From: Vicinamibacterales bacterium
GTDB lineage: Bacteria > Acidobacteriota > Vicinamibacteria > Vicinamibacterales > UBA8438
NCBI GenBank assembly: GCA_965197395.1
Contig: OZ240205.1
Coordinates: 1,787,107 to 1,851,106 of the forward strand
Length of the DNA: 64,000 nucleotides
Direction of reading: 5' to 3'
Part shown: one piece after another, positions 4,909-60,793 of the stretch
How positions within the stretch are numbered: position 1 is the first letter of the stretch
Layout of the letters: each line of letters opens with the position of its first letter
Program-made: the position numbers and the translations under genes
Notes under the pieces: model-generated
What the model was told of the DNA's origin: nothing
What the model saw: the letters and a program-made list of their open reading frames with translations, nothing else
Database searches by the model: none

Positions 4909-5125
4909 GGTTCCTCTCAGGGATCGTGCAGCTTTGGCCGGTTCCATGGCTAATAAGTCAAGCATTGTCATCGACTTACGTGGCTGGAGAACACCGTCTG
5001 TATCTGGAGAGGAACTGCAGGCTCTCGGAAAGTCCGGCCCACGGTACACGGCGGAAATCGCGAGGGGCCTGCCAGTGCCAAGGGGCTGAACAGTCAGCGA
5101 GGGTTCGGCCCAGCGGTAAAACGTC
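4909..5125 (+). mobile_element. truncated copy (first ~217 bp) of the 474-bp MITE-2 element
   Basis: Starts with the same terminus GGTTCCTCTCAGGGATCG as the full copies at 11323 and 42853 (reverse). It is collinear with them up to ...CAGCGGTAAAACGTC and then diverges. Confidence 0.7.
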
Positions 5126-5144
5126 AGACGCGCGGCTACGTGGT

Positions 5145-5219
5145 GATTCTCCTCGAGATGTCTACGACACCCGGATCATTCCGCTGGATGGCCGGCCGCG
5201 TGCGGTCATGACGACGTGA
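5145..5219 (+). pseudogene. short fragment of the expanded secreted family
   Basis: Reads DSPRDVYDTRIIPLDGRPRAVMTT-stop. (V/T)xxxRIIPLDGRPH is a family motif seen in the intact paralogues. Confidence 0.4.
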
Positions 5220-5267
5220 CCGTCCTCAGCGAAGGGCGGATGGGACAGGTCTAGCCGGCCTGCGCTC

Positions 5268-6041
5268 ATGCCCGACCGACTTCAGCTCGCAAGGAATTGG
5301 CTCCCACGATACACGGGGATGCCCCTTGACCGGTTCGGCGATCACATCCTGCTGACTAACTTCCGCTATCACGTGGACACGTTCACAGAGACGTTCGGCT
5401 GTGAACGGTTTGGCGAAGACAAGCCGATGCAGGCGGCGACGAACGACCTGGGGCTCACGATCATCAATTTCGGGATTGGGTCCGCAAACGCGGCAACGAT
5501 CATGGACCTGCTGAGCGCCTGCCAACCCAAGGGTGTCCTGTTCCTCGGGAAGTGCGGCGGGCTCAAGAGATCCACCGAGATCGGCCATTTCATCCTGCCG
5601 ATCGCGGCCATTCGTGGTGAGGGGACGAGCGACGATTATTTCCCGCCCGAAGTGCCGGCGCTGCCCTCGTTCAAACTCCACAAGTTCGTTTCCCAGAAGG
5701 TCGCCGAGCACGGATATGACTATCGTACCGGTGTCGTGTACACAACGAATCGACGCGTCTGGGAGCACGACAACGACTTCGTAGCTCGGCTCAAAGCGAT
5801 GACCTGTATCGCCATCGACATGGAGACCGCCACGATCTTTATCGTCGGACATCGGAACGAGATCGCTCGTGGCGCACTCCTGTTGGTTTCAGACTTGCCG
5901 ACGACGCCGGAGGGGGTCACGACTGAGGAGTCGGACAAGCGGTTTATCCAGGAATGGTCTCAGATCCACCTTCAGATGGGAATCGAGGCGATGACCGAGA
6001 TCGATGAACGCGGCGAGAAGATTAAGCACTTCAAGTACTGA
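5268..6041 (+). CDS. amn: AMP nucleosidase (short form, PNP/UDP phosphorylase fold)
   Basis: 257 aa. FGIGSANAATIMDLL, FLGKCGGL, IAIDMETATIF and the C-terminal KIKHFKY are typical of AMP nucleosidase catalytic domains. Confidence 0.75.
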   Translation: MPDRLQLARNWLPRYTGMPLDRFGDHILLTNFRYHVDTFTETFGCERFGEDKPMQAATNDLGLTIINFGIGSANAATIMDLLSACQPKGVLFLGKCGGLKRSTEIGHFILPIAAIRGEGTSDDYFPPEVPALPSFKLHKFVSQKVAEHGYDYRTGVVYTTNRRVWEHDNDFVARLKAMTCIAIDMETATIFIVGHRNEIARGALLLVSDLPTTPEGVTTEESDKRFIQEWSQIHLQMGIEAMTEIDERGEKIKHFKY

Positions 6042-6360
6042 GCCGTCCGACACAGCGCCCCAAAGCGGCCACCTGTTCTGGATCGCTGTGTTGCTGACCC
6101 TCTGGGTGTTTCCCCCGGTGGTCAACATCGGCTTCACACGGAGTTGGGGGACGAAGCCCCGAACGGTGATCGCAGCTCTGGCCGCGGTGGCCATCGTCAC
6201 TGGGCTCGCGCTGTACGGAAACTGGTGGGCGCCGCCGCTGGAAGTGTTGCTGCTGGTCTGGATGATCTATACGTTCGGCCATCTGGGCCGGCTGAGGGGG
6301 CCCCGGCCGCTGTCCCTCCAGTCCGCTCGTTGCACACCGCCTGCCTCTCCGAGGCCGTGA
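6004..6360 (+). CDS. small membrane protein, start uncertain
   Basis: Three hydrophobic segments (FWIAVLLTLWVFPPVV, VIAALAAVAIVTGLALYG, LEVLLLVWMIYTF). The listed start overlaps amn, so the real start is probably downstream. Confidence 0.25.
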   Translation: MNAARRLSTSSTEPSDTAPQSGHLFWIAVLLTLWVFPPVVNIGFTRSWGTKPRTVIAALAAVAIVTGLALYGNWWAPPLEVLLLVWMIYTFGHLGRLRGPRPLSLQSARCTPPASPRP

Positions 6361-6706
6361 TCCGCCCCGGGCGGTGGCATAATACGCCCCAGTTGCTACC
6401 CCACCGGAGGGACCCTGCGCTGATCTGTGTCGGCGTGCGGTCCGACTCGTTCACGCGACGCAGCAAACGGGGTCTCATGCGGACAGGACGCGCGAAGACG
6501 GTGTCTCGATCCCATACGGCATTGAAGCCCACCAAGACCACGACGCGCCGGCCGGGGCAACGCCTCGAAAACTTCGAGCATGCGGACGTGGTCGCACACG
6601 CTCGGCAGGCACGGCGCAACCGGCGTCCGATCTGGACCAACCCGTTCACGAGGGAACGCGCCGCGCTGTGGCGGAAATCCTGGCGAGGACCACGCGTGGC
6701 CGAGTG

Positions 6707-7015
6707 ATGCAGCTTGATGAACGTGTCGTCGGCGATGTGACCGTGTTGGCGCCGTCCGGCCGGATGACGCGGGACGAGAACTTTGGCGCGGTGAAGCGTC
6801 GCGTCGAGGCGCTGGTCGACGCGGGTCAGCGCAAGCTGGTGCTGGACTTGGGGGCGGTGTCGTATATGGACAGCACGTGTCTCGGCGAGATCGTCAGCGG
6901 GTTCGTGACCATGCGGAAGCAGGGGGGCACCCTGCATCTGGCGAACCTCACGGAGCGGGTCGCGCGGCTGATGACGATTGCCCAGTTGACGAAGGTGTTC
7001 CGGCTATTCGGCTGA
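6707..7015 (+). CDS. STAS-domain anti-sigma-factor antagonist; its stop codon is supplied by the IS3 element
   Basis: VVGDVTVLAPSGRM..., KLVLDLGAVSYMDSTCLGEIV and LANLTERVARLMTIAQLTKVF form the SpoIIAA/RsbV-like pattern. The TGA at 7013-7015 is the first three bases of the IS inverted repeat. Confidence 0.75.
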   Translation: MQLDERVVGDVTVLAPSGRMTRDENFGAVKRRVEALVDAGQRKLVLDLGAVSYMDSTCLGEIVSGFVTMRKQGGTLHLANLTERVARLMTIAQLTKVFRLFG

Positions 7016-7054
7016 ATCGCCCCGGGTTTCCCGGAGGCTCCATATCTTGGGAGG

Positions 7055-8292
<1,238 letters not shown>

Positions 8293-8456
8293 TGAGCTCT
8301 CCGGAGAACCCGGGGCGATTCAGGAGGCGGTCTTGAGCCTGGCGCCGGGACAGCGTGACAGCTAACGCGGATCGTCGCGGACGCAGGTCGGCCCAATCAG
8401 CCCAGCGGCAGCCGGTAGGGTGACCGCTAGAAGCGCCACATGAGGGGAGTTTCAAC

Positions 8457-9176
8457 TTAGCGTGACCCTTGCGCTGCCGCCTGCTCTTCTGCCCGCGTTC
8501 CGCCCAGCATGACCGCCATGCTGTAGTTCCCTTCGTGACAGGCGTACTCGAAGATCGGCTCCGGGTTCAGCACCATCGGCACCGACGCGGTCCACGGGCG
8601 TGTCCACATCTCGGGATCGAGCACCGTGAACTCGTAGACCAGCGTCTCGGCGTCCACGCGGGTGAGGCGCTCGACCAGCTGCATGCTTTCGGTCGTGCCA
8701 CGCCACCGCCGCTTGGCGGCGAAGTTGCGGGTCTCGATTACGAGGGTGTCGCCCTCCCAATGCCCGCGAGAGTCCCCCGACCATTGGCGGATGTCTTGAT
8801 CAAGCCCGGGACCCGCGCCGAGCGGGACGATGCGAGCCGTATGCACCATCTCGGTCACCAGCACGACGTGGTCTGGCGTCTGGGGCGCCCTGCTCCCACA
8901 GGCGAGCATCGCGGTCCACGGCTTCTTGGTCGAGATTCGCCGCGTCCTCCTCCGTCAAGAACTCCTGGTCGCCCAGATCCTCCGGTCGTTGCATGGGCGT
9001 AATGGTGCGGAGTCCCAGACACCCTGCAGGTCCGGCTGACCCCACGACGTCCGAGGAGCGGTCTGGGCCGCACCGGGAATGGCCGACAGCGCCACGACCG
9101 CGATCAATGCACACACCGTCGCGAGACATCGATGGCTCATGTGACCCTCCTCTCGCTCTCTCAGCTCTCGGTCCAC
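8457..9176 (-). pseudogene. degraded member of the expanded secreted family (frameshifts plus internal deletion)
   Basis: N-terminus (signal peptide, TSWGQPDLQGVWD), middle (TITPMQRPEDLGDQEFLTEEDAA) and C-terminus (EMVHTARIVPL ... WEGDTLVIETRNF ... FEYACHEGNY) lie in three different frames. The DPPDGRIPP / ERC segment is missing. Confidence 0.7.
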
Positions 9177-9389
9177 GCACGCTCATGATGGACCCCCAGG
9201 CAAACTACCTGCAAGGATTACCCACTCCTCGTACTTCTCAGCACTCCGTAAGCCCGACTTGGGGCGAGTGCCCGAACCGGTGGAGAGTTCTCGATGTTCT
9301 GTAGAATGAGCCGACAGTCGACGTCACCATGCCTGAACGGGTGAGCCGCGCCATCGCCGGAGCCGTCGCGACGCTCGTCATCGCCTGCA

Positions 9390-9917
9390 GACAATGCGGT
9401 TCGGGATCTGCTGGACCTGGAGGTCGACGTGACCGAGCTGCTGCCGGCCGACGGCGCGAGCTACGGGTTCGACAACGTCGCCGGTGTGCTCGGTGTCTCC
9501 CCGACGCTACTCGAACGGTACTTGGGCGCGGCGCGAAAGATTAGTCGGATTGCGGTGGGCAGACCGGTGCCGTCGGCCGCCACGGAAACGTTTCGTGTGA
9601 CCAATGATCTCTCGCAAGATGATTGGGTCGCGGGCATGCCGTTCGGCACGAGGGGTGGGGCAACCTTTCGGTACAACTTTCCACAGGACGGGGAGTACGT
9701 CGTGAGGGTGTCGCTGGCGCGGGGTACCGGTGGTCAGCTCGCCACATTCGATGTTCCGCATGCTCTCGAAGTCAGTCTCGATAACGACATCGTTCTGGTC
9801 GCCGGCGGGGCTGAAGTGGATGGTCACTCGGATGCCGGCTTTACACCGCTCATGTTTGCGGCGCGGCTCGGGCATATCGACACGGTGGACGCGTTGCTGG
9901 ATGCAGGGGCAGATATT
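9390..9917 (+). pseudogene. chimeric remnant: DUF1587-like N-terminal segment joined to an ankyrin repeat, then cut by the ISL3 element
   Basis: DNAVRDLLDLEVDVTELLPADGASYGFDNVAGVLGVSPTLLERYLGAARKISRIAVG is the DUF1587/PSD-type block. It is followed by GFTPLMFAARLGHIDTVDALLDAGADI (ankyrin). The frame continues after the IS at 12212 (HQTLPDGTGPL...). Confidence 0.5.
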
Positions 9918-9986
9918 GGCTATATCCGAATTTCCCAACTAACGAAATGCGCTGATGATGCTGGTGCATAGGCATTCTGACGTCGC

Positions 9987-11264
9987 TCACAGGGTACGCA
10001 AGTGGCTGGGAATGTGCGCAGGAATATCGAGGTCACCGACGGTCAGGTAGATCATGTCGGCGAAGTCGTCCAGGTGGCGATAACCGGACGCCCGGTTCTT
10101 GACGATCTTGATAATGCGATTCAAGCCCTCGCCGACGGCATTCGTCAGCGGCCTGTCGATGAAGGCCATGATGTGCGTGAGGTGCGTCCGCAGTGTCCCG
10201 ACAAACGTGCGCAACGTCGGGATGCGGCTGCGCAACGCGGCGGTCATCCAGCGTCTGAGGAACTTCGTCGCCGAGGCCCGATAGCGGTAGTTCCAGAAGT
10301 GCTCAAACTCGTCCTTGAGCACCCAGGCGCGATGAATGCGCCGATTGGAGTTCCGCAAGCGATTGAGGAACCGGGTATGGCCCTTGGTCCGGTGTCTGGA
10401 GTGCCTGCTGAGCAGCCACCGCAGCCCCTTGATCGCCTTGCGCCCCGGCGTGTCGAGAGCCCGCCACTGTTCCTTGCGGACTTCGTCCACGGCCTGGTTT
10501 AGCGCTTTGACGAGATGGAAGCGGTCGAGGACGAGCGTGACCTCGGGACAGTGATCGGTGATCGCCCCGATATAGGCGGGGCTCATGTCGCAACTGGCCC
10601 AGGCGACCCGCGTTTTCTGCCCCGGGCTCAGCCAGTCGTTGAAGAAGCGATCGATGGTGTCGCGGCCCTTGCCCGGGCCGACCCACAGGACGCGCGCGCG
10701 GTCCAGGTCGTAGACGAGGGTGGCGAACTTGCGGCCCTTGCAGTAGGAGATCTCGTCGACGCCGAGCGTGGTCAGGCCTCGGATTTTGTGCCCGTGGCGC
10801 ACCCGCGTGATGACTCGGTGCAGCAGGTTGGACAGGGTCGAGGTCGGGAGCCGCAGGATCTCGGCCGCCGCCTGCTGCGTCATGATCTGGCACAGGGCGC
10901 AGAGGCGCCACTCCAGGCGGTAGGTGACGCGGGCATAGGCCGGCGCCCAGGGGATCTCCTCCTGCACGCGCCCATGGGTGGGGCACTGGATCTCTTTCGG
11001 GGCATACCAGAGCACGATGCGCAGGCCCATGACCGCCACATCCTCCCACCGCCGTCGCTCGCTTGTCTGGTGCACGATTCGGCCGCGCCGCCCACACGCC
11101 GGGCAGCGGCAGCCGTTCTTGTACGGCTTGACCGCCAGATGGAGCTCCGTGTCGCGATGCATGAACCGAACATGCGTGACCTTCAGACTCTTGAGACGTA
11201 GGATCGTGCGCAGCAACTTCAGGTTGCTCACGGGCTTCTCCTCCTTCCTGTCGACGGCAATCAA
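9987..11264 (-). CDS. ISL3-family transposase
   Basis: 425 aa. N-terminal zinc ribbon (CRCPACGRRG ... CPTHG), then LGVDEISYCKGRKFATLVYD, ASCDMSPAY, LDRFHLVKA and GLNRIIKIVKNRASGYR. Confidence 0.9.
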   Translation of the reverse strand: MIAVDRKEEKPVSNLKLLRTILRLKSLKVTHVRFMHRDTELHLAVKPYKNGCRCPACGRRGRIVHQTSERRRWEDVAVMGLRIVLWYAPKEIQCPTHGRVQEEIPWAPAYARVTYRLEWRLCALCQIMTQQAAAEILRLPTSTLSNLLHRVITRVRHGHKIRGLTTLGVDEISYCKGRKFATLVYDLDRARVLWVGPGKGRDTIDRFFNDWLSPGQKTRVAWASCDMSPAYIGAITDHCPEVTLVLDRFHLVKALNQAVDEVRKEQWRALDTPGRKAIKGLRWLLSRHSRHRTKGHTRFLNRLRNSNRRIHRAWVLKDEFEHFWNYRYRASATKFLRRWMTAALRSRIPTLRTFVGTLRTHLTHIMAFIDRPLTNAVGEGLNRIIKIVKNRASGYRHLDDFADMIYLTVGDLDIPAHIPSHLRTL

Positions 11265-11322
11265 CAGAGGGAATGAAGCCCGTGTTTACATGCAGCAATC
11301 AAGTCATTGCATCAGCTAAACG

Positions 11323-12171
11323 GGTTCCTCTCAGGGATCGGTGCAGCTTTGGCCGGTTCCATGGCTAATAAGTCAAGCATTGTCATCGACTTACGTGGCT
11401 GGAGAACACCGTCTGTATCTGGAGAGGAACTGCAGGCTCTCGGAAAGTCCGGCCCACGGTACACGGCGGAAATCGCGAGGGGCCTGCCAGTGCCAAGGGG
11501 CTGAACAGTCAGCGAGGGTTCGGCCCAGCGGTAAAACGTCGGCGAAAGTCCAGGCCGCGTTCCACGAGTGTTCATGGTTCGTCGCCCTGTAAATGCCAGC
11601 GCCTCAGCACCTTGAGGTGGGACCGGCTGCCGTCGAGCAGGCCCCCCACCAAAAGCGGGGCCCGCGCAGGCGGCCGTCGACTGAGCGATAGACGACTTCA
11701 CCGCTGATTCGCGGGCACGAACACATCCGCAGCCTCTTTCCACGGCGTGGCTGACCTGCTGGGGGCTGAATCGGGGTCTATCCGGGTTTCCCAACGCCAT
11801 TTTGGGGCCTTTCGGGGTTTTTCGTGGGTGATTTGATTGGAAAGGCCCTGTGGGAGCTCGTGGAAAACGCACAGCGTTTTCCAAGGCACGGTGGGCGCGT
11901 TCTGTGCGTCCACGGCGCCGTCAGCTTCCACAGGGCCCGTCCGTGCGCGACAAGATGGCTCCCAGGGAGGGGGCCCATGCGTGATGTCGAACTGGACCGC
12001 TGCGTCCTCGGACTGCAGTCGACCGGCGAACAACTATGTTCGCGTCAACACCGTCGACCTGTACACGCCGAACGCTCGATTTACCCCGGAAAGACTGGGA
12101 TATCAGGTGCTTACGCTATTTGGGAAACTCGGATATAGCCCTGAATCGTGCACACATTTGTGTGAGGAACC
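11323..12171 (+). mobile_element. MITE-2 (474 bp when the nested MITE-1 is removed), inserted in the IS 58 nt upstream of the transposase start
   Basis: Termini GGTTCCTCTCAGG / GGTTCCTCACACA (inverted). Exact 8-bp duplication GCTAAACG at 11315-11322 and 12172-12179. Confidence 0.75.
11774..12140 (+). mobile_element. MITE-1, a non-autonomous derivative carrying both ISL3 ends, nested in MITE-2
   Basis: Ends are GGGTCTATCCGGGTTTCCCAA and GGCTATATCCGAGTTTCCCAA (reverse complement). Exact 8-bp duplication CTGAATCG at 11766-11773 and 12141-12148. Confidence 0.75.
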
Positions 12172-12488
12172 GCTAAACGTCTTTGGCAAACCCGGATAGA
12201 CCCCAGATATTCACCAGACGCTTCCGGATGGTACCGGTCCGTTGCGGCGTTTTCCCGAGCTAGAGGTGGCACTGCTCGAGCTGGGCGCCACCTCACCCCT
12301 ATTGGCTGCCCATGGTAGCCCGTGTAGATCTGATAGCGATGGTCTTCAACCGTCGTGCGAACGCGGATGCTGGTGGGTCCGGTGACTTCCACCCGTAACT
12401 CGGCGCCGTTCTGCAAGACGAACGCGTCACTGGCATTCAGCAGGTTGGTGACGTGCCGACGTCCGAACAGTCGTTGTCCAATCAGCAG

Positions 12489-13588: not shown

Positions 13589-14592
13589 TCCCCATTTCGT
13601 TCTGGAACGTTAGTCGCCAGGGTGGGGGTTTTCTTACATCAATGAGCCCCCCCCTTTTGACACACCGACGGCCGCAGCCAACGTCAGTTGCACGTCGAAC
13701 GCGGACGGAGCTCACGAGGCTCGCGAGGCCGCAAGGTCGTGCGACAAAGAATTGCTGCTGGCGGACGGCTGTTCGTATGTGACGATCCGCCGCCGGGTCG
13801 ACTGCGCGATGCTGACCTGGGCGCCGCCCTTTATGCCAGATTGGTGGTTACAGAACGGAGTACAGTTCCCCCCCGGACTCTAAACCCAACCGCTACTGAA
13901 GGCGGGGGGACGTCGGGCGCTTCCTGGCCGGCTACGTACGCGGGGCGCCCCGCCGGCGTTCCGGTGGCCACCGGCTGGGCCACGGAGCGACCCGCGAGCG
14001 AAACCAGGGCGCAGCCGACCCCGAGAGCGACCATGGCCGGGGTAGAGCGACGGGCAGACATGAGTCATCGAAATATAGTCGTGCGTCCAGCAAAGGCTGG
14101 CGCGTTCAGCGGGAGACAGTCCCGCCGGAGCAAGAGCCAGGAGCTCCGTAGCCTGGATGGCAGGGAGGAGGGAAACCGAGGCTCTGAAGCCCATCGACGA
14201 CCCACCCATGGGGTGGCAGCGAGTCATCGGGCCGTAACGAATGTGAACGCAGAGGTGGCCCCGAAAGTCATGGCCCCGGAGGCCGAGCCCCCGACTATTG
14301 GGCGAAGGCAGCATCACGTGTCGCACACTGGCTGACGCGGCACGTGGCTCCGGCGGGGTGGGAGCGACGGCACGATGACAAGGACGCGTCGAGCAACTGG
14401 AGAAGCCCTCCTCGTCCTGTCGCGAAATCGGCAGAGCTAGGTAGGTCGTATAACCGGCAGCCCGGGAAGTCGACCGAAGACGAGAGGGTGGCGGAGGGGC
14501 TTGTAGTAGCACAGAAGCGGGGTAATGCCCGTGGAGCGAAGGAGCCCTGCTGTCTCGGCAGCACCTCCGGCAACATGGAAGGCAGGGGCGAG

Positions 14593-15903
14593 ATGACGAA
14601 GGCGCCCATCACGCTGCAAGACCTGAGACGGAGGATATACGTCAAGGCGAAGGCTGAACCGTCTTGGCGGTTCTGGGGCCTGTACGCCCACGTCTGCAAA
14701 ACCGACACGCTCCACGCGGCCTACTCACTGGCCAAAGCGAACAAGGGGGCCCCTGGCAGTGACGGGGTCACCTTCGCGGCCATCGAGGCGGACGGGGTGG
14801 CAGGGTTTGTTGAGCAGTTGCGGGCCGAACTGGTTACCCGCACGTATCGTCCCATGCGCAATCGACGGAAGGCGATACCGAAGGACGGCGGCAAGAAGGT
14901 CCGCGTGCTGTCGATACCGGCCATCCGCGACCGCGTGGTCCAGGGAGCCCTCAAGCTCATCCTGGAACCTATCTTCGAGGCAGATTTCCAACCGGGTTCG
15001 TTCGGCTATCGGCCCCAGCGGACGGCGCATGCAGCGGTGCAGCGAGTCGCCCAAGGCATCGTGCAATACAAGACCCGCGTCATCGACGTGGACCTTGCCG
15101 CCTACTTCGACAATGTGCGGCACCACCTGCTCTTGGCGAAGGTGGCTCGACGGGTCAACGACGCGGACGTGCTGGGCTTGGTGAAGCTGATGCTGAAGGC
15201 GTCGGGCAAGAAGGGCGTTCCCCAAGGCGGGGTGATTTCACCCTTGCTCAGCAACCTCTACCTCAACGAGGTGGACCGGATGCTCGAGCGCGCCAAGGAG
15301 GTCACGCGGAACGGGAAGTACACATACCTCGAGTATGCGCGCTTCGCCGATGATCTCGTGATCTTGGTGGATGCCTACCGCCGGCATGACTGGTTGCTCA
15401 CGGCCGTGGACCGACGCCTCCGGGAGGAATTCGCCAACCTCCAGGTCACGATCAACGAGGAGAAGAGTCAGACCATCGACTTGGCCCGTGGGGACAGCTT
15501 CGGATTCCTCGGCTTCGCGTTCCGTCGGGTTCGCAGCCGTACTGGCACGTGGCGAGCGCATTACACGCCGCGGGTGAAAGCCCGTACAGCGCTCCTGCGT
15601 AAGCTGAAGGACATCTTCCGACGCCATCGGTCCCAGCCCATCGACCGTGTGGTGACTCTCATCAACCCGGTTCTACGGGGATGGGTCACCTACTTCGCCG
15701 TCGGGCACTCGAGCCGGTGCTTCTCGTTTGTGAAAAGCTGGGTGGAGAAGAAGGTTCGGCGTCATTTGATGCGTGCCCGGAACCGCCAGGGTTTTGGGTG
15801 GCACCGGTGGAGTCGGCGGTGGGTGTATGACGTGCTCGGTCTGTTCAACGCGTACCGAGTCCGTCGTGTGGTCCCCCCGCTGACAGCGGGTGCCACTCGA
15901 TAG
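14593..15903 (+). CDS. group II intron reverse transcriptase/maturase
   Basis: MTKAPITLQDLRRRIY ... APGSDGVTF ... RKAIPKDGGKKVRVLSIPAIRDRVVQ ... ARFADDLVILV (YADD variant) ... RGWVTYF (domain X). No endonuclease domain. Start chosen at ATG 14593. Confidence 0.9.
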   Translation: MTKAPITLQDLRRRIYVKAKAEPSWRFWGLYAHVCKTDTLHAAYSLAKANKGAPGSDGVTFAAIEADGVAGFVEQLRAELVTRTYRPMRNRRKAIPKDGGKKVRVLSIPAIRDRVVQGALKLILEPIFEADFQPGSFGYRPQRTAHAAVQRVAQGIVQYKTRVIDVDLAAYFDNVRHHLLLAKVARRVNDADVLGLVKLMLKASGKKGVPQGGVISPLLSNLYLNEVDRMLERAKEVTRNGKYTYLEYARFADDLVILVDAYRRHDWLLTAVDRRLREEFANLQVTINEEKSQTIDLARGDSFGFLGFAFRRVRSRTGTWRAHYTPRVKARTALLRKLKDIFRRHRSQPIDRVVTLINPVLRGWVTYFAVGHSSRCFSFVKSWVEKKVRRHLMRARNRQGFGWHRWSRRWVYDVLGLFNAYRVRRVVPPLTAGATR

Positions 15904-16185: not shown

Positions 16186-17181
16186 ATGATCAAGAACAGC
16201 CTGGCGGTGGTGTTTGCCTTGACCCTCGTCCTGACGCTCGTCCCGCAGGCGGCGGTGGCGCAGTCTGGCGTTGCCGGGATGCCGATGCGGACGCCGGACG
16301 GCCAGCCTGACGTCTCCGGCATGTTCACCTTCCGGACGATCACGCCGTTCCAGCGTCCCGAGCAGTTCGCCGGGCGCGAAACGCTCAGTGCCGAGGAAGC
16401 CGCGGCGTTCGAGGCGTCAGAGCGTACCCGCCAGAATCGTGACCTCTTTGACCCGGAGAAAGGCTCGGGTGGCTACCGTCCCCGCGCCGACGGCGGGGTG
16501 CTGTCATACAACGAGTTCTGGTACGAGCGCGGAATCGAGCTGACGAGGGACAAGCGGACCGCCCTCGTCATCGACCCGCCGGACGGCCGGCTGCCGCCAC
16601 GCACCGACGCGGCCATCAAGGCTGCCGCGGTCCGGCGCGACTATGTTGAGGAGCACCGCTACGATTCGTACGAGAACCGCAGCTCTGGCGACCGCTGCCT
16701 CATGGGTTTCAACGCTGGCCCGCCGATGCGGTCGAGCGCCTACAACAACAACGTGATGGTGTTCCAGACACCAGGGTATGTGACGATTCTCAACGAGATG
16801 GTGCACAACGCCCGGATCATTCCGATCGACGACAACCCGGATCTCGCGTTCGATCAACGCAGCGGCGTGTCCCGGGCCCACTGGGAGGGTGAGACGCTGG
16901 TCATCGAAACCGACCAGTTCAGCGGCGGGAGTAGCGGCCTGACCTCGACGAGCATGCATCTGGTCGAGCGCCTCACTCGACTCGACCCCGACACTGTCGC
17001 GTACGAGTACACGGTCACCGACCCAACGGTCTACACCGCACCGTATACGGTGATGATGCCGTTCCGTCGAACCGACGGACCGCTCTTCGAGTACGCCTGC
17101 CACGAAGGCAACATCGGCCTGCATGGCATCCTTGCCGGCGCACGGCAGCTCGAGGCCGACGGACGGAAGCTCCGTCCCTGA
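16186..17181 (+). CDS. secreted protein of the expanded uncharacterised family (short form)
   Basis: Signal peptide, DGQPDVSGMFTF, TALVIDPPDGRLPP, DRCLMGFNAGPPM, EMVHNARIIPID, WEGETLVIETDQF, FEYACHEGNIG. Confidence 0.8.
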   Translation: MIKNSLAVVFALTLVLTLVPQAAVAQSGVAGMPMRTPDGQPDVSGMFTFRTITPFQRPEQFAGRETLSAEEAAAFEASERTRQNRDLFDPEKGSGGYRPRADGGVLSYNEFWYERGIELTRDKRTALVIDPPDGRLPPRTDAAIKAAAVRRDYVEEHRYDSYENRSSGDRCLMGFNAGPPMRSSAYNNNVMVFQTPGYVTILNEMVHNARIIPIDDNPDLAFDQRSGVSRAHWEGETLVIETDQFSGGSSGLTSTSMHLVERLTRLDPDTVAYEYTVTDPTVYTAPYTVMMPFRRTDGPLFEYACHEGNIGLHGILAGARQLEADGRKLRP

Positions 17182-35002: not shown

Positions 35003-36010
35003 ATGACCATCCGACCCTTCGCGTCTCTCGCTAGCGGCGTCGCGCTCGTGCTGCTCGTCCCGGCGGCGGCCGCCGCCCAATCCGGCAGCGGCTCGTCGCC
35101 CCTCAAGACCGCAGACGGGCACCCCGATCTGAGCGGGGTCTGGGATTTCCGGACCGTCACGCCGCTGGAGCGCCCGGAGGAGTTCGCCGACAAGGAGTTC
35201 CTGACAGAGGAAGAAGTTGCCGAGTACGCCGCCGAACGCGTGCGAGCCAGCAATGCCGACCTGGATCGGGAGCAGAAGAAGCAGGTGACGACGGCCCGTG
35301 GCCAGGTAAACGGCACCACGGAGACTCGGGACCTCGCGCTCGCGTACAACGACTTCTGGTGGGACCGCGGGACGGCCGTCGTCGAGACCCGTCGGACCTC
35401 GCTCGTCGTCGATCCCCCGAACGGTCGGATTCCCGCGCTGACCGACGCGGGCTCCGCGCGGGCCGCCGAGCTAGTCCGGATCAATCAACGGCCGACCGAG
35501 GGTCCGGAGGACCGTCCATTGGGCGAGCGGTGCATCACCGGCTTCAATTCAGGACCGCCCATGATCCCGGCCGCCTACAACATGAACGTGCAGATCTTTC
35601 AGACCGCCGACCACGTCGTCTTGTTCAACGAGATGGTGCACAACGCACGGATCATCCCGCTCGATGGCAGCGCCCACGGCGCGATTCCACAATGGACCGG
35701 TGTGTCACGCGGACGCTGGGAGGGAGACACCCTCGTCGTCGAGACCAAGAACTTCCTGCGGGAGACCAGCTTCCGGAATTCGACCAAGAACCTCCATCTG
35801 ATCGAGCGCATACAGCGAACCAGCGATGACGACCTGCTTTACAGCTTCACGGTGACCGACCCGACGACCTGGACCGAGCCGTGGACGGTGGAGCTTCCGA
35901 TGCGTCTGAGCGACCTGCCGATCTACGAGTACGCCTGCCATGAGGGGAACTACGGCATGGAAGGCACGCTGAGCGGCGCCCGTGTCATCGAGCGGAGGTC
36001 GGGCGAGTAG
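35003..36010 (+). CDS. secreted protein of the expanded uncharacterised family (short form)
   Basis: Signal peptide, DGHPDLSGVWDF, TSLVVDPPNGRIPAL, ERCITGFNSGPPM, EMVHNARIIPLDG, WEGDTLVVETKNF, YEYACHEGNYG. Confidence 0.8.
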   Translation: MTIRPFASLASGVALVLLVPAAAAAQSGSGSSPLKTADGHPDLSGVWDFRTVTPLERPEEFADKEFLTEEEVAEYAAERVRASNADLDREQKKQVTTARGQVNGTTETRDLALAYNDFWWDRGTAVVETRRTSLVVDPPNGRIPALTDAGSARAAELVRINQRPTEGPEDRPLGERCITGFNSGPPMIPAAYNMNVQIFQTADHVVLFNEMVHNARIIPLDGSAHGAIPQWTGVSRGRWEGDTLVVETKNFLRETSFRNSTKNLHLIERIQRTSDDDLLYSFTVTDPTTWTEPWTVELPMRLSDLPIYEYACHEGNYGMEGTLSGARVIERRSGE

Positions 36011-38410: not shown

Positions 38411-39647
38411 ATGCGCCGAGTGCTCGAGCTGACCGGGGTCATGGCAGTGGTTTTGGCCGTCACCGTGCTGCTAAATATGACGCTGGTACCGGTCCCGATC
38501 GCCGGCCAAGAGGAGGCGGCCCCGGCTGCCCCGACCCTCCTGGGGCGAGCCGGATCTGCAGGGCATCTGGACGACCGACTATGAGATCCCGCTCCAGCGA
38601 CCCGCGCGGTTCGCCGGCCAGGAGTTCTTCACCGACGAGGAACGGGCCGAGCTGGATAGGGAACGGGCCCGCATCATTGGCTCCGACCAGCGGCGCTCGG
38701 ATCGGGGAAGTGAACAGGACGTCGGCGGCGCCTACAGCGCGGCGATCTTTCTGAGCCACAAACATATGGGCCGGCGGACGTCGTTGATTGTGGACCCGCC
38801 CGATGGCAGAATCCCTCCCCTCACGCCGGAGGCGCAGTCGCGGCGGGACGCCATCCGCGAGTATCAGCTCGCGCTCATCCGGCCCACCGACGTCTGCCGG
38901 AACAACCTGCCCGCCTGCGCCGGCGGACAGTACGGGCCGCCGTCACCGAGGAGAGCCGAGCCGCCGCCGTACTATCCGGCGACCGGGGCGGCAGCGGGTG
39001 GGTCCTTCAATCGCTCGGACGGACCGGAGGACCGCGGATTGGGGGAGCGGTGCATGTCGGCGCGCCTGCCGGACTTTGGCGGCGCGGCGGGGTATTTCCT
39101 GCGGATCGTGCAGTCGCCGGGGACGGTCTCGATTTTCTATGACACGGGGCAGGGGCAAGGGTGGCAGCGGGTCATCCCGGTGACCGACCGGCCGCATCTG
39201 CCCGCACGCGTGCGGCAGTGGTGGGGAGACTCGCGCGGTCGGTGGGAGGGGAAAACGCTGGTCGTTGACACGACGAACTTCAGCCCGAAGACGGACTATC
39301 AAGGGTCGCGCGAGAACCTGCATCTGGTCGAACGATGGACGCGGCTCGACGCGGCGAGGATCGAGTACGTCGCCACGATGGAGGACCCGACGACGTGGAC
39401 GAGTCCGTGGACCGTGGCGGTCGAGCTCAGCCAGCAAAGCAACGAAGCGAATCGCTTCTATACGGAGCCCCGGTGCCACGAAGGCAACTACGGCCTGCCG
39501 GGGTTGCTCGCGGGCGAACGTGCGATGGAGCGCGCGTTCGCGGAAGGCAATGGCCCCGATCCGGCGACCCTGTGCACCGCCGGCTGCGGAGGATTTGCCG
39601 GAGGATTCGCCGACAGCGGGGCGGAAACGAATCCGCTGGGACGATGA
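38411..39647 (+). pseudogene. long-form member of the expanded family with a +1 frameshift near 38537-38540
   Basis: ATG 38411 gives a signal peptide. The frame breaks at ...CCGACCCTCCTGGGGCGA..., where the paralogue at 41307 has ...CCGACCGCGTGGGGCGA... (4 nt versus 3). Downstream, WGEPDLQGIW...CHEGNYG is intact to 39647. Confidence 0.65.
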
Positions 39648-39714
39648 CAAGCTGTGGCCACGGGCTACCAGCATGCAGCCGTGGCGAGTCGAGGGGTTCA
39701 CGTGTGTCGCTTTC

Positions 39715-39763
39715 GTAGCGCAGGCCTTCAGGCCTGCGAGGCAAGGCTGAAGCCTTGCCCCAC
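39715..39763. repeat. REP doublet (two adjacent hairpins, GTAG head)
   Basis: GTAG-CGCAGGCC-TTCA-GGCCTGCG-A-GGCAAGGC-TGAA-GCCTTGCC-CCAC. Related copies at 45379 and 60745. Confidence 0.7.
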
Positions 39764-39802: not shown

Positions 39803-40768
39803 ATGCGAAACCGGTTCAGAAGCTCAAGGATTGGCGCGGCACTTGTCGTCGCGGCTGTGGGCGCCGTCATCGCCGTGTCGATGACGCGCACCGCTGGCCA
39901 GGCGCCGTCGCCAGGACGCACCGTGGACGGCAAGCCCGACTTCAGCGGGATTTGGCAGGCCAACAACGAGGCCAACTGGGATCTCGAGGCGCACGCCGCG
40001 CGTCCGGGCGCGGTGACGCAACCGGGCGCATATCCCTTTCCTTTCGCGGAGGTGCCGGCGGCGCCGGTGCTCGCGCTCGGCGCGGCCGGCGGCGTGCCCG
40101 GGTCCCTCGGTGTCGTCGAGGGCAATGGTACGATTCCGTACACCCCGGAAGCCGCGGCAATCAAACAGGAGAACGCGGCAAACTGGATCGACCGCGACCC
40201 GGAGCTCAAATGCTATCTGCCGGGCATCCCGCGCGCGATGTACATGCCCTATCCCTTTCAGATCGTCCAGAGCACGAACAAGATCCAGATGGCCTATGCG
40301 TTCACGAGCACGGCCCGTACGATCCACCTCGATCAGGTCGAGGGGCCGCCCGACGACACGTTCATGGGGCATTCGGTCGGCCGCTGGGAGGGGGACACGC
40401 TGGTCGTCGACGTGACCGATTTCAACGGCAAGAACTGGTTCGACCGAGCGGGGAACTTCCACAGCACGGCCTTGCGTCTGGAGGAGCGGTTCACACCGAT
40501 CTCGCCTGACGCAATCCGCTACGAGGTGACGATAGAGGATCCGAACACCTTTACACGGCCCTGGCGGATTTCGATGCCGCTGTATCGGCGTTTGGAGCCG
40601 AACATGCAGCTCCTCGAGTACCGCTGTATCGAGTTCGTCGAAGAGTTCCTCTACGGACACGTCCGCAAGGAGCAGCTCGTCCAACGGTGGGAGGGGGAGA
40701 CGATCATCGTGGACATCACGCGGAAGGTGCCGCCAGGGGACGCCTTCTACGAGTGGTATCGGAAGTAG
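39803..40768 (+). CDS. divergent member of the expanded secreted family
   Basis: Signal peptide, DGKPDFSGIWQA, WEGDTLVVDVTDFNG, DPNTFTRPWRISMPL. It lacks the CHEGNY motif (LEYRCIEFVEE). Confidence 0.7.
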   Translation: MRNRFRSSRIGAALVVAAVGAVIAVSMTRTAGQAPSPGRTVDGKPDFSGIWQANNEANWDLEAHAARPGAVTQPGAYPFPFAEVPAAPVLALGAAGGVPGSLGVVEGNGTIPYTPEAAAIKQENAANWIDRDPELKCYLPGIPRAMYMPYPFQIVQSTNKIQMAYAFTSTARTIHLDQVEGPPDDTFMGHSVGRWEGDTLVVDVTDFNGKNWFDRAGNFHSTALRLEERFTPISPDAIRYEVTIEDPNTFTRPWRISMPLYRRLEPNMQLLEYRCIEFVEEFLYGHVRKEQLVQRWEGETIIVDITRKVPPGDAFYEWYRK

Positions 40769-41236: not shown

Positions 41237-42332
41237 CGGGAATCAGGCCGTTATGCTGCACAAGAAGCGCCTACGGGGGTTTGGGGGCGAAGCCCCGTCT
41301 AGTTATATGACGAGACGAGTACTCGAGTTGATCGTAATGGCGGCGGTGCTTGTCGCCGTCACCGTGCTTCTAAACATGACGCTGGTGCCGGTCGCGGGTC
41401 AGTCCTCGACGGCTCAGGACCAGCCGGAGGCGGCCCCAGCGACCCCGACCGCGTGGGGCGAACCGGACCTGCAGGGCATCTGGACGACCGACTATGCGAT
41501 CCCGTTGCAACGACCCGCGCGGTTCGCCGACCGGGCGTTCTTCACCGACGAGGAGCGGGCGGAGCTGGATGAGGAACGCACGGCCATCATCGGTCGCGAC
41601 CCGCGTTCGCAGGCGGGCAGCGAACAGGACGTCGGCGGCGCCTACAACCGCGCGATCTTCCTGACGCACAAGCATACGGGCCGACGGACGTCGCTGATTG
41701 TGGACCCGCCGGATGGCCGCATCCCTCCCTTCACGCCGGAGGCCGAGCAGCGACGGGCCGCCTTCCGCGAGTACCAACTTGCGCTCCTCCAGGCGACGGA
41801 CACCTGCAAGAACGCGCTGGTGGGTTGTGCGGGCGGACAATACGGGCCACCCTCACCTCGTCGCGCGGAGCCGCCGCCTCACTATCCGGCGAGCTCCTTC
41901 AATCGCTCGAACGGTCCGGAAGACCGCGGGTTGGGGGAACGGTGCATGTCGGCCCGGCTGCCCGACTTCGGGGGGGCGGCGGGGTATTTCCTACGGATTG
42001 TGCAGTCGCCGGGCACGGTGTCGATCTTCTATGACACCGGCCAGGGGCAGGGGTGGCAGCGGGTCATCCCGGTGACCGATCGACCGCATCTGCCCTCGCG
42101 CGTACGGCAGTGGTGGGGGGACTCTCGGGGTCGGTGCGAGGGCGACACGCTGGTCGTCGACACCACGAACTTCAGCGCGAAGACGGACTACCAGGGGTCG
42201 CGGGAGAACTTGCATCTGGTCGAACGTTGGACCCGGCTCGATGCGGCGACGATCGAATATGTCGCCACGATGGAGGACGCGACGACGTGGACGCGCCCGT
42301 GGACGGTGGCGGTCGAGCTCAGCCAGCAAAGT

Positions 42333-43140
42333 GGGTCTATCCGGGTTTCCCAACGCTATTTTGGGGCCTTTCGGGGTTTGGTTCCTCACACAAATGTGTG
42401 CACGATTCAGCCCCCAGCAGGTCAGCCACGCCGTGGAAAGAGGCTGCGGATGTGTTCGTGCCCGCGAATCAGCGGTGAAGTCGTCTATCGCTCAGTCGAC
42501 GGCCGCCTGCGCGGGCCCCGCTTTTGGTGGGGGGCCTGCTCGACGGCAGCCGGTCCCACCTCAAGGTGCTGAGGCGCTGGCATTTACAGGGCGACGAACC
42601 ATGAACACTCGTGGAACGCGGCCTGGACTTTCGCCGACGTTTTACCGCTGGGCCGAACCCTCGCTGACTGTTCAGCCCCTTGGCACTGGCAGGCCCCTCG
42701 CGATTTCCGCCGTGTACCGTGGGCCGGACTTTCCGAGAGCCTGCAGTTCCTCTCCAGATACAGACGGTGTTCTCCAGCCACGTAAGTCGATGACAATGCT
42801 TGACTTATTAGCCATGGAACCGGCCAAAGCTGCACCGATCCCTGAGAGGAACCCGGGGTTTTTCGTGGATGATTTGATGGGAAAGGCCCTGTGGAAGCTC
42901 GTGGAAAACGCGCAGCGTTTTCCGAGGTGCGGTGGGCGCGTTCTGTGCGTCCACGGCGCCGGCAGCTTCCACAGGGCCCATCCGTATGCGACAAGATCGC
43001 CGCGTCCTCGGACTGCAGTCGACCCGTGAATGACTATGTTCACATCGAAGCGGCCGACCTGTGCAGGCCGAACGCTCGATTTACCCCGGAAAGACAGGGA
43101 TATCAGGTACTTACGCCCTTTGGGAAACTCGGATATAGCC
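42333..43140 (+). mobile_element. MITE-1 copy (ISL3-derived) with MITE-2 nested inside
   Basis: Same two termini as at 11774..12140. Exact 8-bp duplication AGCAAAGT at 42325-42332 and 43141-43148. Confidence 0.8.
42380..42853 (-). mobile_element. MITE-2, full 474-bp copy
   Basis: Termini GGTTCCTC... at both ends (inverted). Exact 8-bp duplication CGGGGTTT at 42372-42379 and 42854-42861. The uninterrupted MITE-1 at 11774 has a single CGGGGTTT at this point. Confidence 0.8.
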
Positions 43141-43366
43141 AGCAAAGTAACGAAGCAAATCGTTTCTATACGGAGCCCCGATGCCACGAAGGGAACTACG
43201 GGTTACCGGGGTTGCTCGCGGGCGAACGGGCGATGGAGCGCGCGTTTGCCGAAGGCCTTGGTCCGGATCCGGCGACCCTCTGCACCGCCGGATGCGGATC
43301 CGGATTTGACGGGGAGAATCGCGATCCGCTCCGTTGATGCCACAGCGGCTCTAGCCCACGCGTAGG

Positions 43367-45353: not shown

Positions 45354-45378
45354 GCTCGACGCACCGTCTGTGGCATCC

Positions 45379-45427
45379 GTAGCGCAGGCCTTCAGGCCTG
45401 CGAGGCACGGCTGAAGCCGTGCCCTAC
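45379..45427. repeat. REP doublet
   Basis: GTAG-CGCAGGCC-TTCA-GGCCTGCG-A-GGCACGGC-TGAA-GCCGTGCC-CTAC. The second stem differs from copy 1 by a compensated pair. Confidence 0.7.
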
Positions 45428-45501: not shown

Positions 45502-46518
45502 CTACTGCTGGGTCGCCGCCGCCCGTTCATCTTCGCGCGCACCACGCAGAATATTCAGCAACCCGTAGTTCCCCTCGTGACACGCGTACTCGAAGATCGG
45601 TACCTCCGACTTGCGCATCGGAATGGCGGCCGTGAACGGTCGTGTGAACGTCGTCGGGTCCTCGACCGTGAACTCGTAGCGAAGCACACCGGCATTGACG
45701 CGCGTCAGCCGCTCCGTTAGACGAAGGTGCTCGCCTGTGCCCATGGCCACCATCGCATTGGGCGTGAAGCTCGACGTCTGGCCGTTGAAGTTCGTGCTCT
45801 CGATGACGAGCGTGTCGCCGTCCCAATGCCCGCGGGCGTCACCATTCCACTGCACCACGTCGTCCGGCAGGTGCGGGCGCCCGTCAAGGGGAATGATGCG
45901 CGGGTCGTGCACCATCTCGTTGAGAATGACCACGTGGTCGGGCGTCTGGAACAGCTGCACGTTCTGGTTGTAGCCGCCGGGTGTCAAGGGCGGTCCGTGT
46001 GCGAACCCCAGAAGGCATCGCTCGGCGAGACCGCGATCCTCCGGCGCATCCACGCCGCTCCCGCCCGCGCGATACCGAACGGGGCCGACTCCCGGGACAT
46101 CCTCCGATAGGGACCCGACCTGGTGGACCGCCCCCGCGACCAGCGGTGGGATCTTCCCATCCGGCGGATCCACGATCAGCGACGTGCGCCGGTCGTCGAC
46201 CAGACCGGGCGTATCCACCCAGAACACGTTGTAGCCGCCCGGGTCACCCTCCGGCGGTGGCCGGTCGACCAGGAACTCGTTCGCACGCGCCTTCTGCGCC
46301 GCCGCTTCCTCCGCCGTCAGCTCGGTCTGCCCCTCGAGCTCGTCCGGTCGCTCCAGCGGCGTCGTCGTACGGAAGTCCCACACGCCGCCCAGGTCGGGCG
46401 CACCCCACGACGTCCGGGGCGTCTGGCCCGCGTCCGTGGATTGCGCCTCGGCGAGGGGTGATGACACCGCCACGACGGCGGTGACCGCCAGCGCGGTAGC
46501 GAGATGTCGATGCTTCAT
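45502..46518 (-). CDS. secreted protein of the expanded family (short form), tandem copy 2
   Basis: Start chosen at MKHRHLATALAVTAVV (ATG 46516-46518). TSWGAPDLGGVWDF, TSLIVDPPDGKIPPL, ERCLLGFAHGPPL, EMVHDPRIIPLDGRPH, WDGDTLVIESTNF, FEYACHEGNYG. Confidence 0.85.
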   Translation of the reverse strand: MKHRHLATALAVTAVVAVSSPLAEAQSTDAGQTPRTSWGAPDLGGVWDFRTTTPLERPDELEGQTELTAEEAAAQKARANEFLVDRPPPEGDPGGYNVFWVDTPGLVDDRRTSLIVDPPDGKIPPLVAGAVHQVGSLSEDVPGVGPVRYRAGGSGVDAPEDRGLAERCLLGFAHGPPLTPGGYNQNVQLFQTPDHVVILNEMVHDPRIIPLDGRPHLPDDVVQWNGDARGHWDGDTLVIESTNFNGQTSSFTPNAMVAMGTGEHLRLTERLTRVNAGVLRYEFTVEDPTTFTRPFTAAIPMRKSEVPIFEYACHEGNYGLLNILRGAREDERAAATQQ

Positions 46519-46534
46519 GTGAAAGCCTCTTCTT

Positions 46535-47554
46535 CTACTGCTGGGCCGCGGCCTGCTCATCCTCCCGCGCACCGCGCAGGATGTTGAGCAAGCCGTAGTT
46601 CCCCTCGTGACACGCGTACTCGAAGATCGGGGCGTCTGATTTGCGCAGTGGAATCGCGGCCGTGAACGGCCGGGTGAACGTGGTCGGGTCGTGGACCGTG
46701 AACTCGTAGCGCAGCACGTCGGCGTTGACCCGCGTCAGACGCTCGATCAAGCGGAGGTTGTCACCGATGCCCAGCGCCGTCAGGCCGTTGATGAAGCTTG
46801 CCGTCTTGTCGGTGAAGTTCGTGCTCTCGATGACGAGGGTGTCGCCGTCCCAGTGCCCCCGCGCGTCGCCGTTCCACTGCCGCAGGTCGTCCGACAGGTG
46901 CGGGCGTCCGTCCAGCGGGATGATGCGTGGATCGTGCACCATCTCGTTGAGAACCACCACGTGGTCGGCGGTCTGAAACACCTGGACGTTCTGGTTATAG
47001 CCGCCGGGAGTCAACGGCGGCCCGTTCGCGAACCCCAACAGACATCGTTCGGCAAGGCCGCGATCCTCGTGGCCGTCGACGCCGCTCCCGCCCACCCGAT
47101 AGCGAAGAGGCCGGGGTGCCGGCAAATCCTCGGAGAGCGAGCCGACCTGGCTCACCGCGTTCGGCGTGAGCGGCGGGAGCTTCCCGTCCGGCGGGTCCAC
47201 GATCAACGACGTCCGGCGGTCGTCGATCAGCCCCTGAGTATCGAACCAAAACGCGTTGTATCCACCCGGGTCACCCTCCGGCGGGGGGCTGTCGAGGGCG
47301 GCGGCCAGGAACTCGGCGGCGCGCGCCTTCTGCGCCGCCGCTTCCTCCGCCGTCAGCTCGGTTTTCCCGGCCAGCTCGTCCGGACGCTCCAGCGGGACCG
47401 TCGTGCGGAAATCCCACACACCGCCCAGGTCCGGCGCACCCCACGACGTCCGGGGCGTCTGGCCCGCGTCCGTGGATTGCGCCTCGGCGAGGGGTGATGA
47501 CACCGCCACGACGGCGGTGACGGCCAGCGCGGTAGCGAGATGTCGATAGCTCAT
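46535..47554 (-). CDS. secreted protein of the expanded family (short form), tandem copy 1
   Basis: This is the C-terminal 339 codons of the 891-aa ORF. Start chosen at MSYRHLATALAVTAVV (ATG 47552-47554). Same motif set as 45502..46518. Confidence 0.85.
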   Translation of the reverse strand: MSYRHLATALAVTAVVAVSSPLAEAQSTDAGQTPRTSWGAPDLGGVWDFRTTVPLERPDELAGKTELTAEEAAAQKARAAEFLAAALDSPPPEGDPGGYNAFWFDTQGLIDDRRTSLIVDPPDGKLPPLTPNAVSQVGSLSEDLPAPRPLRYRVGGSGVDGHEDRGLAERCLLGFANGPPLTPGGYNQNVQVFQTADHVVVLNEMVHDPRIIPLDGRPHLSDDLRQWNGDARGHWDGDTLVIESTNFTDKTASFINGLTALGIGDNLRLIERLTRVNADVLRYEFTVHDPTTFTRPFTAAIPLRKSDAPIFEYACHEGNYGLLNILRGAREDEQAAAQQ

Positions 47555-47647
47555 GTGACGCTCCTCCTCAGACTGTCCGCTAAGCATATGATGGACCCGC
47601 AGAGTGGCGGCGTGCAACACGCACGTGGAAAAGAGGGGGCCCTGTTC

Positions 47648-60722: not shown

Positions 60723-60744
60723 CAGTTATCGCTCCTTGGTCTTC

Positions 60745-60793
60745 GTCACGCAGGCCTTTGGGCCTGCGTGGCAGGGCTGAAGCCCTGCCCTAC
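60745..60793. repeat. REP doublet (variant)
   Basis: CGCAGGCC-TTTG-GGCCTGCG-TG-GCAGGGC-TGAA-GCCCTGC-CCTAC. Lies intercistronic between two minus-strand genes. Confidence 0.65.

Follow-up and report, generated by a model that had tools for sequence, protein, structure and literature searches.

Two families of non-autonomous transposon lie nested in one another, in both orders, within a 64-kb stretch of a Vicinamibacterales genome (the window, meaning the whole 64,000-nucleotide sequence above, whose coordinates are used throughout). At locus 2 (42325..43148), a miniature inverted-repeat transposable element (MITE) that we term MITE-2 sits inside a second one, MITE-1, which in turn interrupts a member of a large uncharacterised gene family. 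At locus 1 (9910..12211), MITE-1 sits inside MITE-2, and the pair occupies the leader of a full insertion sequence (IS) of the ISL3 family. We favor the reading, at a probability of about 92%, that these were two terminal-repeat transposons active side by side, with MITE-1 probably moved by the ISL3 transposase and MITE-2 by another enzyme, as judged from their ends, duplications and copies.

Reciprocal nesting at two loci

At locus 2, the 808-bp nested unit 42333..43140 is bounded on both sides by the duplication AGCAAAGT, and the MITE-2 within it is flanked on both sides by CGGGGTTT. Deleting MITE-2 together with one CGGGGTTT leaves a MITE-1 of 326 bp that aligns from end to end with the uninterrupted copy at 11774..12140, and the junction is gapless there, with a single CGGGGTTT. 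The copy at 11774 is therefore the empty site for this insertion, as the sequence-only reading of the region had proposed. The two MITE-1 copies are not near-identical, being 90.8% identical and separated by a 41-bp deletion in the locus-2 copy, away from the MITE-2 junction. That reading had also placed MITE-2 in the opposite orientation to its host, and the reverse complement of 42380..42853 does match the locus-1 MITE-2 at 100%. Its coordinates and target duplications proved exact in every case when the sequence was re-read and checked by script, and the empty and filled relationships, for which it proposed an alignment of 11323..12171 with the reverse complement of 42333..43140, hold base for base.

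Locus 1 extends further than its two MITEs. A BLAST comparison of MITE-1 with the window returned matching ends at 9918-9947 and 12175-12203, which delimit a full ISL3-family IS. With its insertions, which add 857 bp to the leader, this unit measures 2286 bp and is flanked by CAGATATT at 9910-9917 and 12204-12211; it splits an ankyrin-repeat open reading frame (ORF), and excision restores the frame of that ORF. MITE-2, 849 bp long with the MITE-1 it contains, is bounded by GCTAAACG at 11315-11322 and 12172-12179, 25-32 nt from the left end of the IS, and MITE-1 within it is bounded by CTGAATCG at 11766-11773 and 12141-12148. Removal of MITE-1 and one CTGAATCG yields a 474-bp MITE-2 that is the reverse complement of 42380..42853 at 474/474 positions. 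Excision and duplications together bear out the reversed order that had been claimed here, and they make locus 1 a three-level nest, deeper than previously described.

An 8-bp repeat would flank a pre-defined boundary by chance with a probability of about 1.5e-5, and the window holds five perfect pairs, AGCAAAGT, CGGGGTTT, GCTAAACG, CTGAATCG and CAGATATT, at such boundaries, which is far beyond chance. The element boundaries and their duplications are directly established; they are listed with the related features in Table 1.

Table 1. Window coordinates of the nested elements, the disrupted gene and related features
Feature	Position	Strand	Remarks
Locus 1
ISL3-family IS	9918..12203	-	Full element, 1429 bp without insertions; hosts the locus-1 nest
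ISL3 transposase gene	9987..11231	-	DDE_Tnp_ISL3; 414 aa; GTG start after GGAGGAG ribosome-binding site
MITE-2	11323..12171	+	In the IS leader; pieces 11323-11773 and 12149-12171
MITE-1, 367-bp variant	11774..12140	+	Inside MITE-2, 23 bp from the MITE-2 end
Locus 2
Disrupted family gene, 5' part	41253..42332	+	Codons 1-360
MITE-1 target duplication, left copy	42325..42332	.	AGCAAAGT
MITE-1, 326-bp variant, left segment	42333..42379	+	Carries left terminal repeat GGGTCTATCCGGGTTTCCCAA
MITE-2 target duplication, left copy	42372-42379		CGGGGTTT; closes the MITE-1 left segment
MITE-2	42380..42853	-	474 bp, non-coding; CGGGGTTT on both sides
MITE-1, right segment	42854..43140	+	Ends in right terminal repeat TTGGGAAACTCGGATATAGCC
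MITE-2 target duplication, right copy	42854-42861		CGGGGTTT; opens the MITE-1 right segment
MITE-1 target duplication, right copy	43141..43148	.	AGCAAAGT
Disrupted family gene, 3' part	43149..43337	+	62 codons and stop; conserved CHEGNYG motif
Elsewhere in the window
Third MITE-2 copy	4909..5125	+	Truncated after 218 bp; identity 99.5%
Paralogue of the disrupted gene	38411..39647	+	Internal empty site AGCAAAGC; frameshifted
Family paralogues, at least seven	35003-36010, 38411-39647, 39803-40768, 41253-43337, 45502-46572, 46532-47600, 16186-17181

Separate copies and empty sites on independent contigs

Loci and contigs retrieved from databases for comparison carry L-numbers, and one of them, the independent contig L096, holds the same elements apart from one another. 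It has an uninterrupted IS identical to that of the window (1429/1429), an uninterrupted MITE-2 (474/474) with its own duplication CCGCGACT, and two 367-bp copies of MITE-1 (367/367 each), one of which has its own duplication ATATTTCC. The intact IS and the intact MITE-2 therefore provide empty sites for both of the insertions within locus 1. Together with the syntenic gene described below on a second contig, L004, they answer the earlier suggestion that empty sites be sought in related genomes, and with perfect duplications at every level they sustain the proposal that the reciprocal nesting arose by independent transposition.

The second MITE-1 of L096 has no such pair of its own; it and the IS share a single common outer duplication, TTTTTTGT. 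Inside that duplication, at 5280..7314 of the contig, the 367-bp MITE-1 and the full IS are accompanied by 239 bp of a threonine dehydratase gene, from the C-terminal domain, and the inner junctions are without duplication. This arrangement bears the signature of compound transposition, in which the unit moved whole, along with a fragment of a host gene.

The ISL3 element and the MITE-1 family

The resident IS can be assigned to the ISL3 family directly. Its transposase passes the Pfam models PF01610 DDE_Tnp_ISL3 (4.8e-63) and PF13542 HTH_Tnp_ISL3 as well as the NCBIfam equivalog NF033550 transpos_ISL3 (281 bits against a cut-off of 180), and matches PF14690 Zn_ribbon_ISL3 weakly (22.2 bits, below the 25.5 cut-off). 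The terminal repeats, GGCTATATCCGAATTTCCCAA and GGGTCTATCCGGGTTTGCCAA, start with GG and accompany an 8-bp duplication, as is characteristic of the family, and the same architecture recurs in relatives such as L020, L031 and L076. An identical transposase protein is encoded on at least 12 other contigs, of which L096 is the one retrieved.

MITE-1, in its 326-bp and 367-bp forms, has terminal inverted repeats that match at 18 of 21 bases (GGGTCTATCCGGGTTTCCCAA versus TTGGGAAACTCGGATATAGCC) and target duplications (AGCAAAGT, CTGAATCG and ATATTTCC). At each end, 20 of 21 bases agree with the corresponding terminal repeat of the IS, and the duplication length is the same, 8 bp. The interiors are unrelated, the similarity being limited to some 30 bp per end and a leader motif of 10 bp. 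MITE-1 has no capacity to encode a transposase: tblastn found no transposase sequence inside it, and the family alignment has indels throughout. An autonomous partner with these ends is present in the same genome, namely the IS at 9918..12203, and both also occur on L096. Given shared ends and duplication length, co-occurrence, and identical copies at different sites, we infer that MITE-1 is moved in trans by the resident ISL3 transposase. The earlier label of 'ISL3-derived' holds in this sense, by virtue of the common repeats, the 8-bp duplication and a transposase that passes the ISL3 models. An origin of the MITE-1 interior as a deletion product of the resident IS copy was considered and rejected, as only about 30 bp per end match.

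ISL3-type insertions here lie in locally AT-rich 8-mers, in a genome of 66% GC, and this choice of site explains why the family gene was hit in an unusually AT-rich stretch, cagcaaagtaacgaagcaaatcg. A metagenome scan with the ISL3 left terminal repeat retrieved 91 loci, several from metagenomes labelled as marine sediment. Among them are full IS elements of 1429-1650 bp as well as MITEs of 219-369 bp, and many have perfect 8-bp duplications that are mostly AT-rich. Five of the 91 carry true members of the MITE-1 family, with 88-92% identity to the copies in the window, and all five are uninterrupted. One contig, L018, carries relatives of both MITE-1 and MITE-2.

In some ISL3 relatives (L027, L048, L074, L086 and L069), the first 350 bp after the left repeat include a conserved module, roughly 200 bp long and highly palindromic, that precedes the start of the transposase and begins about where MITE-2 entered the window IS. 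We considered whether these extra 200 bp were separate insertions and rejected that in favor of a conserved leader module of a sub-lineage. A structured RNA in MITE-1 was likewise set aside, since its family alignment folds as a long hairpin with almost no covariation (term +0.26), and neither MITE-1 nor MITE-2 matches a known RNA in Rfam, whether the gathering threshold or E<=1 is applied.

A second MITE family with different ends

MITE-2 is a 474-476-bp element that occurs in several copies and ends in an imperfect inverted repeat matching at 17 of 23 bases (GGTTCCTCTCAGGGATCGGTGCA and GGTTCCTCACACAAATGTGTGCA); the 474-bp form runs from GGTTCCTC to GAGGAACC. Six insertions have distinct 8-bp duplications, of which five are perfect and the sixth, in L003, differs at one base, and these show no AT preference. 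Its ends are unrelated to those of MITE-1 and the IS, and MITE-2 must use a transposase other than the ISL3 one. When species-representative genomes were scanned for the left end, three Vicinamibacterales metagenome-assembled genomes (MAGs) proved to have a single full-length copy apiece, 88-96% identical to the window copy and each with its own 8-bp duplication. Indels of 1-2 bp among the four lineages break every reading frame, so that the long open frame in MITE-2 was rejected as a protein, and the element has no internal ORF of useful size. A structured RNA was rejected too, with folding z-scores of -1.25 and -1.40, not better than shuffled sequence.

Directly after the third, truncated copy in the window, at 5126..5220, some 30 codons of a family gene survive in frameshifted form (YVVILLEM / YDTRIIPLDGRP). 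Half of this MITE-2 and most of the adjoining gene were apparently lost to a deletion.

The disrupted gene and its relatives

Precise excision at locus 2 opens a frame of 422 codons. The restored protein, in which VELSQQS is followed by NEANRFYTEPRCHEGNYG, equals the paralogous ORF 38766..39647 over the same stretch, and the restored DNA is gapless against that paralogue and against two intact homologues on L004. The earlier statement that MITE-1 interrupts a long-form family gene, whose frame on excision is that of the paralogue at 38411..39647, therefore stands, with the correction that the paralogue is not itself an intact copy: a frameshift near 38500-38545 separates its signal-peptide region from the remainder, which makes it either a pseudogene or the site of a sequencing error.

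In its present state the ORF at locus 2 runs into the MITE as far as 42572 and predicts a chimeric product of 439 aa (P0001). The gene is most likely inactive because its last 62 codons, with the conserved CHEGNYG, have been lost, and the insertion thus explains why one copy of a large uncharacterised family is a pseudogene. At about 42131-42139, the Trp of the conserved GRWEGDTLVV is replaced by Cys (TGG to TGC), unlike in the other window paralogues compared, and this change may reflect decay after inactivation.

The restored protein has thousands of homologues and belongs to a family, with more than 8000 homologues in databases, that is without a name and without a match in Pfam, NCBIfam or PDB. 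Nothing but the truncated ORF of the window matches it at 100%, and its best intact relative, at 85% identity, is on L004. Gene order around the site is conserved on that contig (413aa / 321aa / DUF6152 / 411aa / 476aa), and its orthologous gene is intact and gapless across the MITE site, which makes it a syntenic empty site in another assembly. Exact look-ups of four neighbouring proteins and P0001 found no second assembly of the window region on record, and hence yielded no empty or intermediate allele at the level of the strain.

The window paralogues end in the conserved CHEGNYG, cluster with a DUF6152 protein and a pyrroloquinoline quinone (PQQ)/cytochrome c dehydrogenase, and are probably secreted. 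Several copies of the same family in the window are decayed or duplicated. Two of the three copies of a 63-nt repeat (39701-39763, 45365-45427 and 60731-60793) follow family genes; the repeat consists of two GC-rich hairpins, GCAGGCCTTCAGGCCTGC and GGCAAGGCTGAAGCCTTGCC, and looks like a repetitive extragenic palindromic (REP)-like or terminator element.

Order and timing of the insertions

On our favored reading, locus 2 would have formed in two steps, with the 326-bp variant of MITE-1 entering the AT-rich patch AGCAAAGT of the family gene and cutting off its last 62 codons, including CHEGNYG, and MITE-2 later entering that MITE-1 at CGGGGTTT. Locus 1 would have taken three: entry of the full IS into the ankyrin-repeat gene, of MITE-2 into the leader of the IS, and of the 367-bp MITE-1 into MITE-2. 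Such nests would be tolerated, as insertions into other mobile DNA would cost the host nothing.

Copy identity, which can be read off directly, speaks to the age of these events. Three full copies of MITE-2 are 100% identical (two in the window and one on L096), and the truncated copy is 99.5% identical; the 367-bp MITE-1 has three 100%-identical copies and the IS has two. Because all three elements have multiple identical copies, recent movement is indicated, and the nesting orders place MITE-1 activity before one MITE-2 insertion (locus 2) and after another (locus 1). The suggestion that both elements were mobile in the same recent period draws support from these two lines of evidence, the identical copies and the interleaved orders.

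Several points weigh on the other side. The copy numbers are minimum figures, the window's own genome having been scanned within these 64 kb. The MITE-1 copy in the family gene differs from the active 367-bp type by about 9%, and 'recent' is unsupported for its insertion; copies from other samples are equally distant from the active type, the 41-bp deletion of the copy in the gene is derived, and its insertion there may be much older. Finally, neither the window, the 97 retrieved loci nor genome, metagenome, viral and plasmid searches yielded an autonomous element with MITE-2 ends, by scans that needed exact matches and that a diverged partner could escape. The genome-collection scan with the left end returned the three MITE copies only, without a parent; the metagenome scan with the right end and the plasmid BLAST for a parent each returned zero matches; and the one viral contig that matched the degenerate pattern of a MITE-2 end was rejected as a chance hit in AT-rich DNA, without a partner end.

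Alternative explanations

The alternative that survives best, though we consider it unlikely, is that nesting was directed and was not a passive use of a 'safe haven': the MITE-2 transposase would prefer a leader site inside an ISL3-type left repeat. Both of the nested MITE-2 insertions lie in ISL3-type elements on the left-repeat side (25-32 in the IS and 40-47 in MITE-1), in the same orientation and exactly 7 nt from ATGAYTTGAT (11298-11307 and 42869-42878), a motif with no further occurrence in the 64 kb, and all three nested insertions fall 23-47 bp from an end of the host element. However, these are two cases only, and they also served to define the motif. The other five known MITE-2 sites (L096, L001-L003 and 4909) are outside ISL3 elements and without the motif, the homologous site in the 11774 MITE-1 is unoccupied, and the five metagenome relatives of MITE-1 are uninterrupted. 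A tendency to target other elements in their sub-terminal leader is accordingly no more than hinted at, and we rate it improbable. The stronger version, of MITE-2 as a 'transposon hunter' that preferentially inserts in one orientation 7 nt from a conserved ATGAYTTGAT inside the ISL3 left end, is slightly more doubtful still. The complementary strand of the IS copy of this motif fits the integration host factor (IHF) consensus WATCAANNNNTTR. If the stronger version were true, MITE-2 would separate a terminal repeat from the rest of its host, perhaps damping a competing element, and reciprocal nesting would be an interaction of two transposon families rather than neutral accumulation.

One or both nests may instead have formed elsewhere, given that L096 shows that compound units can move, and then have been transposed whole, for example as the 808-bp MITE-1::MITE-2 unit by way of the MITE-1 ends; local nesting order would then not show the sequence in which the locus was built. 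Each nest has intact outer terminal repeats, and the compound unit of L096 is evidence that this transposase system moves such assemblies. Yet a second copy of either nest was not seen in the window or in the retrieved loci, where the other copies are simple, and we think whole-unit transposition improbable, to about the same degree as the 'hunter' proposal. It would still require MITE-1 to be in place before MITE-2 entered it, so the conclusion that the two elements overlapped in activity is unchanged.

An artefact of chance repeats, repeat mis-assembly or recombination between copies would have to be taken seriously in a window that probably comes from a MAG, as assemblies fail most often at repeats, but it is very improbable given five perfect 8-bp duplications exactly at element boundaries, the gapless restoration of the reading frame and of each host element, and an independent contig with the separate elements at 100% identity; nor can recombination or gene conversion make a new duplication of local target sequence. 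We therefore retain independent transposition of two co-resident MITE families.

Other mobile DNA in the window

An IS3-family element with orfA and orfB occupies 7013..8322. Its inverted repeats, 25 bp long, lie at 7012-7036 and 8299-8323, and an ALIL frameshifting pseudoknot (RF01497) is found at 7342-7458; decayed pieces of the gene family adjoin it on the minus strand (8457-9186). A group II intron lies at 14107..15903, where domains D1-D4 match RF02003 (114 bits), followed by a reverse transcriptase/maturase of 519 aa (TIGR04416, 2.3e-104).

Significance and comparison with known systems

Overall, the window documents transposon activity in Vicinamibacterales, an acidobacterial lineage that has been little studied, and does so cleanly and with internal dating. 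It brings together an active ISL3 element, the MITE family belonging to it, found widely in metagenomes of marine sediment, and a second MITE family without a known parent. Both MITE families are apparently undescribed in Vicinamibacterales, and the type of event itself is ordinary, as textbooks would lead one to expect of mobile DNA; a preference of MITE-2 for ISL3 leaders, which is possible, would be the one novel point. To our knowledge, this ISL3/MITE family has not been described for the order, and we found nothing relevant in the literature when searching for nested MITEs in bacteria and for IS elements of Vicinamibacterales. For annotators, the practical consequence is that the chimeric 439-aa ORF should be masked.

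The window IS resembles other members of the ISL3 family in its 1429-bp length, its GG-starting repeats of about 21 bp and its 8-bp duplication, as well as in a transposase that passes the ISL3 models and in insertion sites that are AT-rich relative to the genome. MITE-1 is like known MITE derivatives of ISL3 elements in that it shares the IS ends and duplication length, but it differs in that its interior did not arise from the resident IS by simple deletion. The unit on L096, a related contig rather than the window, recalls a composite transposon, because the left end of a MITE-1 and the right end of an IS bracket the 239-bp gene fragment within one 8-bp duplication; however, one arm is a MITE and not a second IS, and the cargo is without evident function. 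Nested insertions have long been used for relative dating, classically with the MITEs of rice and maize and with nested IS elements in bacteria. The present case follows that pattern, with element inside element, each with its own duplication, a host that is restored by excision and an order that can be taken from the nesting. It differs in that both orders occur within one 64-kb stretch, that one of the nests has three levels, and that identical un-nested copies serve as the empty sites.

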